A DNA stretch of 46,532 nt from a virus. Made by a program: the position numbers and the translations under genes. Positions within the stretch are counted from its first letter, which is position 1. The number at the start of each line of letters is the position of its first letter. The DNA is taken from UHGV virus genome UHGV-0212526; one strand, given 5' to 3'. The notes under the pieces are model-generated. The model saw only the letters and a list, made by a program, of their open reading frames with translations, had not been told where the DNA came from and searched no databases. Of this stretch, positions 2,411 to 46,532 are shown one piece after another.

Positions 2411-2836
2411 ATGTACGAAATATTTGTGAAATTATTAGAAAAATATGGAGTAACCGCTTATAAAGTATCTAAAGCAACAGGAATAGCGGGGTCTACTTTT
2501 ACAGACTGGAAAACCGGAAGAAGTACTCCGAAACAAGACAAACTACAAAAAATTGCCGACTATTTTGGTGTAACTGTTGATTATCTGATGACGGGAAAAG
2601 AAGAGCCGGAAAAGAAAGAGATTACACTCACCCCAAAGGATGAACGAGATATTGCAAAGGATTTAAGTAATATTATGGAGAAGCTAAGAAAAGGTGAGGC
2701 CGGGCCTGCAAGTTTTGAGGGGGATGAAATACCAGAAGAAACACAAGAGCTATTTGCCCAGCAGTTGGACATCATGTTACACCATCTGAAGAAAATCAAT
2801 AAAGAAAAATACAACCCTTACAAGAACAAAAAGTAG
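2411..2836 (+). CDS. XRE-family HTH repressor (CI/ImmR-like)
   Basis: 141 aa; N-terminal HTH VTAYKVSKATGIAGSTFTDWKTGRSTPKQDKLQKIADYFGV; followed by ImmA-like protease gene; AGGAGG RBS. Confidence 0.8.
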   Translation: MYEIFVKLLEKYGVTAYKVSKATGIAGSTFTDWKTGRSTPKQDKLQKIADYFGVTVDYLMTGKEEPEKKEITLTPKDERDIAKDLSNIMEKLRKGEAGPASFEGDEIPEETQELFAQQLDIMLHHLKKINKEKYNPYKNKK

Positions 2837-2844
2837 GTGAGCAT

Positions 2845-3276
2845 ATGGGGGATAAAGAACGCATTAAGCGCCTTGTTGCTTATTATATAAGGCTTTGTGG
2901 TACAGCTGACCCTTTTAAAATTGCTCGACAATTAAAGATAGAAGTTCAGTTTGGCCCGTTGGGGGAATATGCGGGGTGCTATTTATTTGCAAAAAACCAC
3001 CGATGTATTTTTATCAATAATTGTATAGAGGGTCCAGAGTTACTCTTTGTTATGGCCCATGAGTTAGGACACGCAATTATGCACCGTAAACAGAATTGTT
3101 ACTTTTTGAGAAATTATACATATCTCAATTCACGCGTTGAAAGGGAAGCAAACCTCTTTTCGGCATTCATGGTTATAACTAATGATTTTATTACAGAGCA
3201 TTCAAACTATAGCAGTAATGATATAGCTGAATTATACGGTTGCGACTATTATACCGTTGAATCACGATTAAGATAG
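2845..3276 (+). CDS. ImmA/IrrE-family zinc metallopeptidase (anti-repressor protease)
   Basis: HEXXH motif (MAHELGHAIMH) in a ~140-aa protein immediately downstream of XRE repressor, the classic ImmR-ImmA arrangement. Confidence 0.8.
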   Translation: MGDKERIKRLVAYYIRLCGTADPFKIARQLKIEVQFGPLGEYAGCYLFAKNHRCIFINNCIEGPELLFVMAHELGHAIMHRKQNCYFLRNYTYLNSRVEREANLFSAFMVITNDFITEHSNYSSNDIAELYGCDYYTVESRLR

Positions 3277-5903: not shown

Positions 5904-6202
5904 GTTATTGCAGTCCGGCCCACCGGATGTCAATAACATATGATTAGATTAAGCCCCTGGAATCATGGTTCCGGAGGCTTTTCTGGTTTTATTATAGCAT
6001 GGATGGAAGGCAATGTCAGTATGTTTTTGGAAATCTATTTGAACCAGGCCCTATGGATGCCGGTCTGCACCAAAAGAATCATTCCCCATTTATTTTCCCG
6101 CATTTTATGATACCTTTTGTAACTTTTTGTTGTCCCCCTTCCCTTGATAGTCCTCCTCCTAATAGTTACTTTTATAATGTAATAAGTTTTAGGAGGGCTA
6201 AC

Positions 6203-6544
6203 ATGAAATACGAAAGAGAAACCAGTAACCTGCTTCGACGGCTTGGCGTCAATAATTCCTACATAGGATTTCCCTATACTATCTATGGTGTAATCCGCTC
6301 AGTTCATGAACCGGACCTGCTTTCCTATATATCAAAAGGATTATACGTAGAAATTGCGGTTCGGTATAAAACATCTGTGGGATGTGTAGAACGCAATATA
6401 CGCACCATCATTAATACTATTTGGCTCCATGGAGACCGGAATCTTTTAAACCAGGTTTTCGGCTTTGAATTGGCACAAAAGCCGCGGAACGGTGCCTTTA
6501 TTGATGCGCTGGCTCATTATGTTGTACGCCATTATTATGATTGA
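6203..6544 (+). CDS. Spo0A C-terminal (DNA-binding) domain-like standalone protein
   Basis: 113 aa; alignable by eye with the Bacillus Spo0A effector domain (LLRRLGV..IGF.Y....I.......LL..ISKGLY..IA..YKTS...VER.IR..I...W......L...FG......P.N..FI..LA); AGGAGGG RBS; true start ATG ~6203 inside ORF 5999..6544. Confidence 0.75.
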   Translation: MKYERETSNLLRRLGVNNSYIGFPYTIYGVIRSVHEPDLLSYISKGLYVEIAVRYKTSVGCVERNIRTIINTIWLHGDRNLLNQVFGFELAQKPRNGAFIDALAHYVVRHYYD

Positions 6545-6552
6545 GGAAGTTA

Positions 6553-6573
6553 GGGCGCTATCGCAGCGCCCTT
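6553..6573. terminator. hairpin between convergent Spo0A-like gene and endolysin
   Basis: AGGGCGCT-atcgc-AGCGCCCT perfect 8-bp stem; weak U-tracts. Confidence 0.4.
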
Positions 6574-6580
6574 CGGTAAT

Positions 6581-7354
6581 CTACCAATTAAACACATACC
6601 GACGATTTATCATGTCGTATTCTTCTGCAATCCGGAGCACACCCCTGGCATCCGTAATCATGCACTTGCCCTCGTCGCTGCCCTTGACTGGGCAAAGTAA
6701 AAATGCCTCACCGGCAGGGTCCACCTGGTAGCCGGTCAGCATGTAGCCCTCGGAATCGAACAGATACCAACCACAAGTGCCGTCCGTGGCCTCCCGGAGC
6801 CAGTACCAGCCATTGGCCGCATAGCTGCCGTCTGTAAACTGATACCACCAGCGCTGGCCGTCTGCGGCCGGCTGAAAGCCCTGGGTGTATGTCACTGGGA
6901 CCGGGGTATAGTCGATGTCGCAGAGCTTGAGGACCTTCTGCCAGGGTGTGGCGGTCACTTTGGACTTGATGGTGCCGTAGTTGATGCCCTTGGCCTCAAT
7001 ACACCAACCATCACCTATGTACACCCCGATATGGCCCGGCTTCCAGAGCGCCCAGCCGACCATGGACTCGTCCAGATGGTCGATACCCACGCGCTCCGCT
7101 GCTGTGTCGTGGTAGTTGTAGCTGCCGCGGATGCGCCCGGTATACCAGCTGATGAGGCCGGAACAGTCCGTGCAGCGCTGGCCTATGTACTTGGCCGCCT
7201 TGGCTTTGTAGGTGGATGTGTATGTGCCTGGGTTCTCCCGGGCGAGGCGGTCAAGGATGGCCTGGGTAAGGACCTCACCCTTGGCGCCGTAAACGTAGGG
7301 TGTGCCCAGCTTGTCCTTGCAGTGCTGTATTAATCCTTCTGCTGTTTTACTCAT
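6581..7354 (-). CDS. endolysin: NlpC/P60-family peptidase with C-terminal cell-wall-binding repeats
   Basis: Conserved Cys (QRCTDCSGLISW) and His (GHIGVYIG) of NlpC/P60; C-terminal GW/Y repeats (GWYW..TDG.CGWYLFDSEGYMLTG) typical of CW_binding repeats; AGGAGG RBS before ATG ~7354 (ORF track 6581..7513 is the longer frame). Confidence 0.8.
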   Translation of the reverse strand: MSKTAEGLIQHCKDKLGTPYVYGAKGEVLTQAILDRLARENPGTYTSTYKAKAAKYIGQRCTDCSGLISWYTGRIRGSYNYHDTAAERVGIDHLDESMVGWALWKPGHIGVYIGDGWCIEAKGINYGTIKSKVTATPWQKVLKLCDIDYTPVPVTYTQGFQPAADGQRWWYQFTDGSYAANGWYWLREATDGTCGWYLFDSEGYMLTGYQVDPAGEAFLLCPVKGSDEGKCMITDARGVLRIAEEYDMINRRYVFNW

Positions 7355-7370
7355 AGTGTTTTCCTCCATC

Positions 7371-7402
7371 AAAAAAATAAGGCCCAGGGGCATCCCTGAG
7401 CC
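7371..7402 (-). terminator. intrinsic terminator-like hairpin plus U-tract just upstream of endolysin
   Basis: minus-strand ctCAGGGatgcCCCTGgg followed by ccTTATTTTTTT. Confidence 0.4.
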
Positions 7403-7410
7403 ATGAAAAG

Positions 7411-7440
7411 TTGTGACGTCACAAGTTGCGATATCGCAAC
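7411..7440. repeat. two abutting perfect palindromes TTGTGACGTCACAA and GTTGCGATATCGCAAC
   Basis: 14-bp and 16-bp perfect palindromes read directly in the sequence, in the 90-nt gap between the 79-aa ORF and endolysin. Confidence 0.5.
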
Positions 7441-7443
7441 AAA

Positions 7444-7683
7444 TTACTCCATACCCGGTCCGTGTTCCGGGTCCTGGTCGGAATTGTGCTTCGGGGTGTT
7501 GCTTGGCTGCCACTTCTCCTTATCGTCTGTAGGCTTCGGGTCGTGTGCCCTCGGGTCCTCCCTGCCAGTCCCCGGGCCATAGGGCGCTTTATGGGAGCAC
7601 TCCGTCAATGGACGCTTATTAGTCATCGGATTGTTGTTTACATGGTCATTCAGCTGCTGCTCTGTCATTTTTACTTCTGGCAT
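7444..7683 (-). CDS. hypothetical charged, Pro-rich 79-aa protein
   Basis: ORF with strong AGAAGGAGAG RBS; no TM segment. Confidence 0.4.
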   Translation of the reverse strand: MPEVKMTEQQLNDHVNNNPMTNKRPLTECSHKAPYGPGTGREDPRAHDPKPTDDKEKWQPSNTPKHNSDQDPEHGPGME

Positions 7684-7719
7684 AATCTTGCTCTCCTTCT
7701 ATGTAATGGTAAATGGTTA

Positions 7720-7980
7720 CTACTGCTTAAGCTGCTTGACAGCCTGGTTAATCCCGGTTGCAGCCAATCCGGATACAATTCCAATGGCCACCGCGTTGAT
7801 AACATCCTGGGCCGGGAAGTCCGGCATGGTATACATTCCTACCACTCCCAAGGCTGCCCCCGCCACTCCGCATACTACCGGGATAACCTCATTCCTAAGT
7901 CTGGCGGATGCTTTGCAGACCATCCCGGCCAGATAGCATATCACTGTAATCCCTGCCACACTCGCTATTCCAAAATCCAT
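7720..7980 (-). CDS. holin (small multi-TM lysis protein)
   Basis: 86 aa, two or three hydrophobic helices, charged C-terminus (KQLKQ); position just upstream of endolysin. Confidence 0.7.
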   Translation of the reverse strand: MDFGIASVAGITVICYLAGMVCKASARLRNEVIPVVCGVAGAALGVVGMYTMPDFPAQDVINAVAIGIVSGLAATGINQAVKQLKQ

Positions 7981-9041: not shown

Positions 9042-9105
9042 ATACTATTGTTTATGGGAAGCCTGTTTTTAGAGCCATAATATTGTTTATGGGAAGTCTA
9101 TATTT
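9042..9105. repeat. direct repeats ATTGTTTATGGGAAG x2 (third degenerate copy ~8989-9008)
   Basis: actATTGTTTATGGGAAGcctgttttt ... aatATTGTTTATGGGAAGtctatattt, ~37 bp apart, upstream of plus-strand ORF 9109..9432. Confidence 0.4.
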
Positions 9106-10112: not shown

Positions 10113-11354
10113 ATGGCAAGGAAAAATGACACACCACAGAAAGCGGCAATGCGGGAACTCATGAGCGGTTATCTCAAACAAAACAACGTCAAGATCAAAG
10201 ATGGCACAGATGTCAATGCGATTATGCGTGACATGATGAGTGTCATATTGGAAGGTGCCCTCGATGAGGAAATGAATGAGGAGCTTGGATACTCCAAGTA
10301 TGATTACCGTAACAAAGAAACTGACAACAGCAGAAACGGCCATTCCCAGAAGACCATGCACACCAGCTATGGAGACATGGAGATTGATATCCCACGGGAC
10401 AGAAAAGGGGAATACGAACCTCAGGTGGTCAAAAAATATCAGAATACCGTCACCCAGGACATGGAGGAAAAGATCCTCTCCATGTACGCTAAGGGCATGA
10501 CCACCCATGATATCGAGAGCCATATGCGGGAACTGTACGACATCGATATCTCAGACAGTACCATCAGCCGTATCACGGACAAAATCCTGCCTATCGTAAA
10601 GGAATGGCAGGAACGGCCATTGGAAGAGATTTACGCAGTGGTATTCCTGGATGCCGTCCACTTCCATGTACGCAGCGAGGGACGTATCGTAAAGCAGGCC
10701 GTGTATATCGCCATAGGGATTGATATGTCCGGGAGGAAAGATGTCCTGGGTATGTATGTAGGGCAGAATGAAAGCGCCAAGTTCTGGCTCTCCATTCTGA
10801 ACGGATTAAAGAACCGGGGTGTGGAGGATATCCTGATTGCGTGTGTCGATGGGCTTTCCGGTTTCCCACAAGCGATAGAAGCCGTTTATCCCCAGACAGA
10901 AATCCAGCAGTGCATCATCCATCAGATCCGCAACACCACCCGTTTTGTCTCCTACAAAGAGATTAAGCCGCTGATGGCTGATTTAAAGAAAGTGTATGCG
11001 GCACCGACTGAGGAAACCGCCGTATCGGAATTGGACAGTTTTGATGAAAAATGGAGTGGGAAATATCCTAAAATCGCCAAGTCCTGGCGTGATAACTGGG
11101 TAAATCTATCCACCTATTTTAAGTATCCAGAGGCAGTCAGACGCCTGATATATACGACAAATACCATAGAAGGATTTAACCGTCAGCTGAGAAAAGTGAC
11201 CAAATCGAAGACGGTATTCCCATCCGATGACAGCCTATTAAAAATGCTGTATCTAGCAATGATGGATATCACGAAGAAATGGACGGGGCACCGTCAGGAT
11301 TGGGGTCAGATCCATTCCCAACTGGAAATATTTTTTGAAGAACGATTGTCCTGA
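10113..11354 (+). CDS. IS256-family (Mutator-type) transposase
   Basis: 413 aa; family-typical layout and motifs (e.g. YTTNxIE, CxxH region, LGY...DYRNG). Confidence 0.9.
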   Translation: MARKNDTPQKAAMRELMSGYLKQNNVKIKDGTDVNAIMRDMMSVILEGALDEEMNEELGYSKYDYRNKETDNSRNGHSQKTMHTSYGDMEIDIPRDRKGEYEPQVVKKYQNTVTQDMEEKILSMYAKGMTTHDIESHMRELYDIDISDSTISRITDKILPIVKEWQERPLEEIYAVVFLDAVHFHVRSEGRIVKQAVYIAIGIDMSGRKDVLGMYVGQNESAKFWLSILNGLKNRGVEDILIACVDGLSGFPQAIEAVYPQTEIQQCIIHQIRNTTRFVSYKEIKPLMADLKKVYAAPTEETAVSELDSFDEKWSGKYPKIAKSWRDNWVNLSTYFKYPEAVRRLIYTTNTIEGFNRQLRKVTKSKTVFPSDDSLLKMLYLAMMDITKKWTGHRQDWGQIHSQLEIFFEERLS

Positions 11355-11747: not shown

Positions 11748-13028
11748 TTATTCCGGCAGTCGGCCTTCATACATGATCGACAGTTCCCCGTAAACCTGCC
11801 CCCAGTTGCGGATGGGCATTGTCCATTTCTTCGTGGCCTCAAAGGTCGCCAGATACAATGCCTTCAGAAGCGCTGTGCTGCCGGGGAATACGCTCCTCTG
11901 GCGGTTGAGCTTGCGGTAGGTGGAATTGAGGCTCTCTATGGCGTTGGTCGTGTAGATCACCTTTCGCACCTCCATTGAGAACTTAAAGATCGGCGAGACT
12001 ACATCCCAGTTGTCGTGCCAGCGCTTCATAGAATTCGGATATTTCGGCGTCCACTTTTCTGTCACCTTCTCCAGCGCCTCCAGGGCTTTCTCCTCGTTCG
12101 CAGCGTGGTAGATAGTTTTCAGATCTGTGGAGAATGCTTTCCGGTCTTTGTCAGAGACATATTTGAGTGTGTTGCGTACCATATGCACGATGCAGCGCTG
12201 TTGTTCCGTCTTCGGGAATGCTGCCGATATGGCCTCCTTAATGCCCGTGAGTCCGTCTGAGCAGAGGATGAGGATATCTTTCACTCCGCGGTTCTTCAGC
12301 TCATTCAGGACAGAGAGCCAGTACTTGGAACTCTCATTTTCCCCGATTTGTATACTTAAAACTTCCTTTTTCCCTTCCAGCGTGAGGCCAAGGATGACAT
12401 AGGCGGCAAGCTTGCGGATCACTCCGTTCTCCCGGACAGAATAATGGATTGCGTCAATATAGACTACCGGGTAAACCTCCTCCAGCGGGCGGTTCTGCCA
12501 GTCTTCGATCTGTGGAAGAAGCTTGTCCGTCACATCCGAAATGAAACCCTCAGAAGCCTCGAACCCATAGATATCCATCAGCGTGTCGGATATCTGGCTG
12601 GTGGTCATGCCTTTTGCATACATGGAGATGATCTTCTGGTCGATACTGGAGATATCCTTTTGCCGCTTTTTTACTACCTGTGGCTCAAACGTCGACTTCC
12701 TGTCCTGGGGCACCTGGATGTCCATGCTCCCGAAGCTGCTGTTGATTCTCTTGGGCTTGTAGCCGTTGCGGTAATCGTCGGAATCAGAACGCTCCGATTT
12801 TTCATAACCGAGGTGGTCATCCATCTCAGCCTCCATCATCTCTTTCAGGGTACTTCCCAGAAGGTCTTTCAGGGCCTCCTGGATGTCCTCAGCAGTCTGG
12901 ATGTCATACTCCTCCAACAACTGATGGACAATGTTCCTTTTGCCCTCCGTCATAACTACCTTGTGTACAGGTTGCTTTTCTCTTCTCGCCATAATAATAG
13001 GCCTCCTTATGATAATAGATTTTACCAT
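11748..13028 (-). CDS. IS256-family transposase (second, distinct member)
   Basis: 426 aa, same architecture as the 10113..11354 protein but clearly divergent; probable start MARREKQ at ~12992 (AAGGAGG RBS). Confidence 0.9.
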   Translation of the reverse strand: MVKSIIIRRPIIMARREKQPVHKVVMTEGKRNIVHQLLEEYDIQTAEDIQEALKDLLGSTLKEMMEAEMDDHLGYEKSERSDSDDYRNGYKPKRINSSFGSMDIQVPQDRKSTFEPQVVKKRQKDISSIDQKIISMYAKGMTTSQISDTLMDIYGFEASEGFISDVTDKLLPQIEDWQNRPLEEVYPVVYIDAIHYSVRENGVIRKLAAYVILGLTLEGKKEVLSIQIGENESSKYWLSVLNELKNRGVKDILILCSDGLTGIKEAISAAFPKTEQQRCIVHMVRNTLKYVSDKDRKAFSTDLKTIYHAANEEKALEALEKVTEKWTPKYPNSMKRWHDNWDVVSPIFKFSMEVRKVIYTTNAIESLNSTYRKLNRQRSVFPGSTALLKALYLATFEATKKWTMPIRNWGQVYGELSIMYEGRLPE

Positions 13029-13636
13029 AGAAGACCTACTGCTTGATAGCTATTTACAGAAAAACTTTCATACTCCCTTAAGGAATAGTATCCACCATTA
13101 AGCCAATATAAAAATTGGGTTCCATAACTACTTCTGTTGCTTCTTTCAGCATAAGCAAATCCCCACCCATCTCCTCCTCCATGAATAGGGGTGTAATCAG
13201 CGTGTTCACCTACAATTGATGCATAGAGAGGTGTGAAACCAATATTGCTAATACTCACATAATAAGCGTATATGGAGCAATCACCTCCCGTAAAATTGAC
13301 TTTACTGGTAGATGATGTAAGGGTTTTAGTTATACTCGCATACTTCCGCACATTTCCGGAAACGCCAAAAATGCTCTTCCCATAAACAATATTATTTGCA
13401 TTTAGGTTCCCGTCCCCTTTAATGGTCTGCGCCCCAGCCAGGAACTGATTAGCCGCAATAACCTGGTTAGATGTCCCTGGCGTGTAAGTCTTAGCGGCTA
13501 TTTCCGCCATGATTCCCGTCAATGGATTTCCGTCTTTATCTACGATCACTTTCCCTTTGCGTACATCCGATGACGCTGCTGTTATCACATCCAGGTCAGC
13601 GCCATCACCGCCCCCAGGTATCCATATCTTACCCAT
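13022..13636 (-). CDS. tail fibre / receptor-binding protein segment, 3' end runs into IS copy B
   Basis: Gly/Ser/Asn-rich beta-type sequence; last ~18 codons lie inside the inferred IS end, so the C-terminus is probably IS-derived. Confidence 0.5.
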   Translation of the reverse strand: MGKIWIPGGGDGADLDVITAASSDVRKGKVIVDKDGNPLTGIMAEIAAKTYTPGTSNQVIAANQFLAGAQTIKGDGNLNANNIVYGKSIFGVSGNVRKYASITKTLTSSTSKVNFTGGDCSIYAYYVSISNIGFTPLYASIVGEHADYTPIHGGGDGWGFAYAERSNRSSYGTQFLYWLNGGYYSLREYESFSVNSYQAVGLLW

Positions 13637-46462: not shown

Positions 46463-46532
46463 CTTGTTCACCTTCCAATCTCATTAACTTCCCGCAGTTT
46501 GGACACGGCGTAATCTCACCCAGCAGGGACCA

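Follow-up and report, generated by a model that had tools for sequence, protein, structure and literature searches.

Spore formation governs the transmission and persistence of gut Clostridia, and several phage-borne homologues of host sporulation regulators (sigF/sigG-like sigma factors, Rap-Phr, spo0E and abrB) have been proposed to alter entry into dormancy at the sigma-factor or phosphorelay steps. Closest to the gene described here are the spo0A homologues of gut phages that are reduced to the effector domain and were proposed to act without host signals (Schwartz et al., mBio 2023, PMC10294663). To judge from the part of that paper available to us, it is a survey of 29 virome sequences without a functional test, and the literature yielded no functional test of any effector-only phage spo0A homologue. 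The isolated Spo0A DNA-binding domain does bind its legitimate targets without phosphorylation, both in B. subtilis and in C. difficile (PMC3485338), and the corresponding Pfam family, Spo0A_C (PF08769), is enriched on mobile elements of gut Firmicutes (PMC6907783). A second line of comparison is formed by elements inserted in the open reading frame of a sporulation gene: SPbeta occupies spsM and skin occupies sigK, and for cotJC a skin-like insertion has been recorded in Laceyella sacchari (bioRxiv 10.1101/2022.02.25.481979).

The gene at 6203-6544 of the window (the whole stretch of DNA that was analysed, 46,532 nucleotides) can be set beside both groups. Since the class had already been reported by Schwartz et al., it is a further member of it, and as far as the available part of their text goes the two share a phage genome, an effector domain only and the same hypothesis. 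Unlike the phage sigma factors and phosphorelay homologues, its product would act at the Spo0A DNA-binding step itself. The attP position, the integration into cotJC, the size of the family outside phages and the 0A-type core upstream of the genes were not found in the available part of PMC10294663. In the wider literature searched, we found no report of such a gene next to attP in a cotJC-integrating phage, of how large the receiver-less family is and how far it extends beyond phages, or of a conserved and positioned 0A-core element upstream of its genes.

The phage genome and its integration into cotJC

The window encodes the small and large terminase subunits, portal, minor and major head proteins, tape measure, holin and an NlpC/P60-like endolysin, together with lysogeny genes in the form of a cI/ImmA module and a large serine recombinase (Table 1). 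The endolysin, holin, tail (including tape measure), head, portal, terminase and replication/recombination genes lie on the minus strand, converging on the Spo0A_C gene. The prophage contig L033 aligns unbroken through the junction of positions 46532 and 1, so that the window is a complete genome in circularly permuted form; it belongs to a complete temperate siphophage of Enterocloster (Lachnospiraceae). The structural, lysis and lysogeny genes and the complete circular genome thus bear out the initial annotation of the gene as phage-encoded. A Pfam scan of 20 further phage proteins found no other sporulation regulators.

Table 1. Features around the Spo0A_C gene, in window coordinates
Feature	Position	Strand	Details
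cI-like HTH gene	2411-2836	+	
ImmA/M78 peptidase	2845-3276	+	
300-aa protein of unknown kind		+	between the ImmA/M78 peptidase and large serine recombinase genes
Large serine recombinase (integrase), 486 aa	4443-5903	+	Resolvase, Recombinase and Zn_ribbon_recom domains
attP core GTCCGGCCCACC	5913-5924	.	common to attP, both prophage junctions and attB
Outward sigma-70-like promoter and ATG	5938-6019	-	CTGACA-17-TATAAT with TG extension (6019 to 5991); ATG (5940 to 5938)
Conserved upstream element	6099-6135	+	degenerate half-sites TGATA 6108-6112 and TGTTG 6128-6132; from alignments
Putative own promoter	6144-6172	+	-35 TTGATA 6144-6149, 17-nt spacer, weak -10 TACTTT 6167-6172; from clade conservation
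Ribosome-binding site AGGAGGG	6191-6197	+	5 nt ahead of the ATG; from reading of the sequence
Spo0A_C-domain CDS	6203-6544	+	start ATG, stop TGA at 6542-6544, 113 aa
Hairpin between the convergent Spo0A_C and endolysin genes	6552-6572	.	8 bp, G+C-rich; -15.8 kcal/mol, z = -1.97
Lysis cassette converging on the Spo0A_C gene	6581-7980	-	endolysin 6581-7354, holin 7720-7980

The attP site (region 5904-5945) lies between the integrase gene, which is directly upstream, and the Spo0A_C gene, and its arms form the dyad GTTATTG...CAATAAC at about 5904-5936. In metagenomes the identical 113-aa protein is met in two forms: (i) recombinase, Spo0A_C and convergent endolysin, as in the window, and (ii) a 175-aa Mn-catalase gene fragment, Spo0A_C and convergent endolysin. 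On the opposite side of the prophage, the recombinase lies directly next to an N-terminal Mn-catalase fragment of 37 aa, after which come cotJB and cotJA. The predicted attB is present in 29 metagenome contigs, and all seven that were translated encode an uninterrupted 210-aa CotJC (MWIYEKRLEF...SQYGGPDGEMG...). As the junctions split cotJC, downstream of cotJA and cotJB, and the contigs hold an intact attB, the phage integrates inside cotJC of an Enterocloster cotJABC operon; public assemblies contain both junctions as well as the attP form and the intact attB. In the isolate [Clostridium] clostridioforme AGR2157 the phage is found integrated, and the Spo0A_C protein there is 99% identical. 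Once integrated, the phage has the Spo0A_C gene as its outermost gene, adjoining the 3′ fragment of cotJC.

This fragment is preceded by a putative strong, outward-facing sigma-70-like promoter that matches the consensus at 11 of 12 positions in a consensus scan, and by a phage ATG from which, in the lysogen, the 3′ part of cotJC could be read in frame (MLLTSGGPDGEMG...). The resulting reading frame is seen as a 186-aa ORF in locus L001 and is called as a 175-aa Mn_catalase gene in L025, L028 and L031. In the lysogen, cotJC appears to receive a new 5′ end and a new promoter from the phage: MLLTS would take the place of the 32 N-terminal residues of CotJC before the shared GGPD, and cotJC may be expressed independently of cotJA and cotJB. 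In its insertion within the coding frame, its frame-restoring att sites and its adjacent large serine recombinase the element agrees with a sporulation-gene intervening prophage. It resembles SPbeta, skin and the Laceyella sacchari element in its insertion in a sporulation-gene ORF, and the SPbeta/skin type also in the large serine recombinase and in precise att sites, by which excision re-creates the intact frame; it differs from that type in being a complete, apparently active siphophage in Lachnospiraceae and in the new 5′ end and promoter that it appears to give to cotJC.

Two further observations concern the architecture of these phages. The cassette integrase-attP-Spo0A_C-lysis is found joined to at least three different lysogeny/replication modules (L024/L032, L033/window and L034), which speaks for modular exchange among the cotJC-integrating phages. 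Between the lysis and tail-fibre genes, the segment 9042-13395 is inverted relative to the sister prophage L025; at its two ends are inverted repeats of 20-29 nt (9042-9070 and 13367-13395; a third one lies at 13074-13092), and it contains an insert of 3.56 kb bearing two opposed transposase genes of the IS256/Mutator family (10113-11354 on the plus and 11748-13028 on the minus strand). This segment may be an invertible tail-fibre region.

The receiver-less effector domain and its relatives

A mechanical list of open reading frames offers a longer alternative frame of 181 aa, starting at 5999. All relatives, however, start with MKYERE, and the sequence 5′ of it is unrelated between relatives at the protein level, so that the 113-aa form is the real product; a GGAGG-type ribosome-binding site is likewise kept in upstream alignments of the relatives. 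Its match to Spo0A_C has E = 6.9e-28 and scores 97.1 bits (cut-off 25); it runs from residue 8 to residue 106 and takes in profile positions 2-103 of 104. The same Pfam scan found no Response_reg domain in the protein. Only positions 149-252 of the 262 of the NCBIfam Spo0A equivalog TIGR02875 are matched, at 53.2 bits against a cut-off of 200. A phmmer search of the PDB returned Spo0A effector domains only, 1fc3 (1.6e-10) and 1lq1 (5.8e-9), and an AlphaFold2 model built from 32 family sequences (pLDDT 95.9) led Foldseek to chains of these two entries alone at E < 1e-3 (TM 0.81-0.91, rmsd 1.7-2.2 A, 26-29% identity), that is, to the same six-helix effector fold. Both the score over the full domain and the fold thus place the protein in PF08769, and phrog_24603, a PHROG family, matches it end to end.

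The claim of the initial annotation that this is a stand-alone Spo0A effector domain without a receiver therefore holds: PF08769 is matched at near full length, TIGR02875 in its C-terminal part only, and the fold agrees. The product consists of a single Spo0A_C domain with no other; it is real and probably functional. An orthologue of Spo0A in the sense of the TIGR02875 equivalog is ruled out, as the protein is without receiver and phospho-acceptor aspartate, scores below the cut-off and departs from the Spo0A helix signature described below. A recent or truncated copy of the host spo0A was also rejected, given an identity to Spo0A DNA-binding domains of 26-35% and a large receiver-less family that is partly non-phage.

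Comparison with Spo0A was based on an alignment of the window protein, two Spo0A PDB sequences and 107 close and 118 distant receiver-less relatives, with residues numbered as in B. subtilis Spo0A on the assumption that the 1LQ1 chain comprises residues 148-267. Fourteen positions are identical to Spo0A and near-invariant in the family, namely G172, K195, Y198, A202, T207, V212, E213, R214, I216, R217, W224, P247, N249 and F252, and the window protein shares with Spo0A E213, R214, R217, K195, Y198, W224 and P247. Zhao et al. 2002 reportedly found E213, R214 and R217 to make base-specific contacts with the 0A box. The equivalents of these three are kept in the window protein and are 89-100% conserved across the 225 receiver-less relatives (close/distant: E213 100/96%, R214 99/89%, R217 94/97%).

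The recognition helix occupies residues 59-76, CVERNIRTIINTIW. The signature SRVERAIRHAIEVAW, common to both solved Spo0A structures, is replaced in the window by GCVERNIRTIINTIW, in which 7 of 15 positions are identical (V, E, R, I, R, I and W) and the remainder read S210G, R211C, A215N, H218T, A219I, E221N, V222T and A223I. Three of these changes are family-specific: R211 to C (94/56% of close/distant relatives), A215 to N (80/61%) and H218 to T (98/87%). Within the clade the helix CVERNIRTII(N/S)TIW is invariant in seven of the eight sequences compared. The initial annotation had made its reading depend on the conservation of the 0A-box recognition residues, and this is borne out for the three reported contact positions and fails at 211, 215 and 218; since the latter consistently differ from Spo0A, the DNA specificity may have shifted. 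An equivalent of the sigma-A-activating helix alpha-E is present, with its exposed residues changed (I229R, S231L and S233N).

The relatives are numerous. A word-indexed search gave 141 close ones, most of them 113 aa long and those with a name from Enterocloster bolteae, and a phmmer search of 1.84 billion cluster representatives (50% identity) gave 3,717 at E <= 1e-3. Among the best 150 of these nearly all are stand-alone proteins of about 105-200 aa, and no receiver-bearing Spo0A is apparent. Ten longer relatives subjected to a Pfam scan are arrays of two to five Spo0A_C domains, and none of the ten has a receiver. Among relatives of 77-99% identity the gene converges on an endolysin gene, those of 77% lying at prophage ends, and relatives of 45-60% identity lie in chromosomal, non-phage settings, for instance by BlaI/BlaR1-like genes, a LytTR regulator or nusA/infB. 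Relatives are present in IMG/VR; INPHARED gave 14 matches only, all distant (29-36% identity) and unannotated, so that no annotated reference phage there has a close homologue. The relatives form an old and large family of receiver-less paralogues that has been picked up by phages.

Some members depart from the simple form. P0122, P0124, P0185 and P0172 have three to five tandem Spo0A_C domains, and P0172 (1003 aa) combines three of them with sigma-70 region 4 and three RNA-polymerase alpha C-terminal domains. Spo0A_C paralogue genes occur as tandem pairs, 0.3-3.4 kb apart, in L009, L011, L014 and L016, and at least three copies are present in C. clostridioforme AGR2157 (L001, L003 and L006).

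0A-type sequence upstream of the family genes

Upstream regions of all family genes in the loci analysed were compared, 29 being kept that differ from each other by more than 25%. The perfect 0A box TGTCGAA occurs in 8 of the 29, where shuffling predicts 0.20 and none of 1000 shuffles gave more than 3; it lies at -73 to -78 from the start codon in six cases and at -107 in two. The shorter core TGTCG is found in 15 of the 29 against 2.3 expected from shuffles, mostly at -73 to -79. This positioned core links the family, by its upstream sequences, to 0A-type DNA.

In about eight to nine divergent chromosomal relatives the box begins exactly 23 nt before a -10-like hexamer (TATTGT or CATTGT) and so fills the -35 slot. 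It is a perfect TGTCGAA in six to seven of them and a near match in two (TGTCTAA and TGTCATA), the loci being L008, L009, L011, L012, L013, L015, L017, L021 and L048 with the near matches in L008 and L021. We take this arrangement to resemble that of Spo0A-activated sigma-A promoters such as spoIIG. The chromosomal receiver-less genes may belong to the Spo0A regulon or regulate themselves; the upstream boxes may be bound by host Spo0A~P, by the family proteins, or by both.

The phage clade has a different arrangement. Homology of the upstream region with other prophages begins at 6099, and the phage-clade relatives have two inverted 0A-box cores (CGACA-15 nt-TGTCG) upstream of the -35 element. 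Both half-sites are degenerate in the window and its five closest relatives, and intact in L053, a phage copy with a 96% identical protein. Further downstream, a canonical -35 (TTGATA) and TAC(C/T)TT are kept in register in clade relatives from different prophages, and 6144-6172 is the probable promoter of the Spo0A_C gene; it was not flagged by the consensus scan because its -10 matches at only three of six positions. At the other end of the gene the hairpin, a modest outlier only, has no T-tract on either strand and is inferred to be a terminator.

Across the window, 0A boxes are not enriched (TGTCGAA 2 against 3.6 expected, TGNCGAA 22 against 19.4), no paired boxes were found, and TGTCG/CGACA is absent from the cro-cI switch, from the region upstream of the integrase gene and from the attP region. 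Because the boxes are unenriched and absent from the regulatory intergenic regions, there is no sign that a phage switch is regulated through 0A-type sites, and any 0A-type targets of the 113-aa protein would lie in the host.

Proposed function and competing accounts

The reading that we propose, with about even confidence, is that of a phosphorylation-independent Spo0A-type binder, encoded by a gene of the lysogenic-conversion type with its own promoter, that would occupy 0A-like sites in host promoters. Independence from phosphorylation would follow from the lack of a receiver, and the statement in the initial annotation that such a domain is constitutively active in vitro agrees with the published behaviour of the isolated Spo0A domains (PMC3485338). 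The gene's own ribosome-binding site and promoter-like site, its convergence with the lysis cassette and its place beside attP suggest an accessory gene that is transcribed on its own and lies at the end of the siphophage genome nearest attP; it would be expressed from its own promoter during lysogeny. We infer that the helix-turn-helix protein would most likely use the conserved E-R-x-x-R side of its recognition helix to bind 0A-box-like DNA that has TGTCG as its core, and that binding would alter transcription from host promoters normally under Spo0A~P control without a phosphorylation signal from the host; it might do so as an activator or as a competitor of Spo0A~P. An effect on host sporulation is plausible, and a prophage regulator of this kind could change when or whether lysogens sporulate. 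The more specific suggestion of the initial annotation, that the phage genome is trapped in spores, was set aside, as a prophage already in the chromosome does not need it.

Several points weigh against the proposed reading: the identity to Spo0A is low, the changes at helix positions 211, 215 and 218 and in alpha-E may matter, the upstream boxes are degenerate in the phage's own clade and unenriched in the window, and the boxes of the wider family could be sites of host Spo0A~P rather than of the protein. The locus lends itself to experiment, as it offers a complete phage, a named host genus (Enterocloster), a defined attP/attB pair in cotJC and, in addition, close relatives with intact or degenerate 0A-core boxes; the conserved upstream box of the wider family provides a direct and cheap binding test.

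A broader version, which we put forward only tentatively and consider rather unlikely in all its parts together, would see in the receiver-less Spo0A_C proteins of Clostridia a layer of the Spo0A circuit that has so far escaped notice. Through the 0A box in the -35 slot their genes would be switched on by Spo0A~P or by their own product, and the products would then occupy 0A-type sites without phosphorylation. The phage would have co-opted one of these genes, remodelled its promoter so that the box is no longer needed, and put the gene beside attP; as it also splits cotJC and supplies a promoter and start codon, host sporulation would be rewired at two points.

The main competitor is a generic regulator from a diverged paralogue family, with the Spo0A_C fold and targets of its own that are unrelated to the Spo0A regulon or to sporulation. 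The size of the family (3,717 clusters, the best 150 without apparent receiver-bearing Spo0A), the non-phage chromosomal relatives beside BlaI/BlaR1-like, LytTR or nusA/infB genes, the changes R211C, A215N and H218T, the TIGR02875 score far under the cut-off and the lack of box enrichment in the phage all fit such an account. It sits less well with the E-R-x-x-R triad and the majority of core residues, which are identical to Spo0A, and the strong enrichment of a perfect 0A box at a fixed upstream place is hard to explain if the family has nothing to do with 0A-type DNA. We regard this account as possible but on the doubtful side. The gene might also encode a directionality factor or excision controller for the adjacent recombinase, governing excision from cotJC in the manner of SprB and SprA. 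SprB works with SprA in the excision of SPbeta, where sprA and sprB are likewise arranged at opposite prophage ends. The integrase and Spo0A_C genes flank attP and hence come to lie at opposite ends of the prophage, which moreover interrupts a sporulation gene. Chromosomal relatives, however, have no serine recombinase within 10 kb, so that the two do not co-occur throughout the family; the multi-domain relatives are Spo0A_C arrays or fusions with RNA-polymerase modules, which points to transcription, and Spo0A appears nowhere in the text of a paper identifying directionality factors of large serine recombinases (PMC12286644). Since members of the family are found where there is no recombinase, and since its most conserved surface is the DNA-recognition helix, such a role is very unlikely.

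Hardly credible, finally, is the view that the gene is decaying or has lost its function and is passively carried along at the end of the prophage, although the degenerate upstream boxes of the clade and the window-specific change R24P could be taken that way. The dN/dS of the gene against clade members is 0.04-0.13, and the gene is thus under strong purifying selection; its reading frame and ribosome-binding site are intact, the product is modelled with high confidence, and the identical 113-aa protein is indexed in 38 assembly-collection blocks and carried by all 24 contigs that were read. The changed codon 24 (6272-6274), at the start of the second helix, encodes Pro here and Arg in 91% of close relatives (F-R-Y to F-P-Y), and its recurrence in many assemblies rules out a sequencing error.
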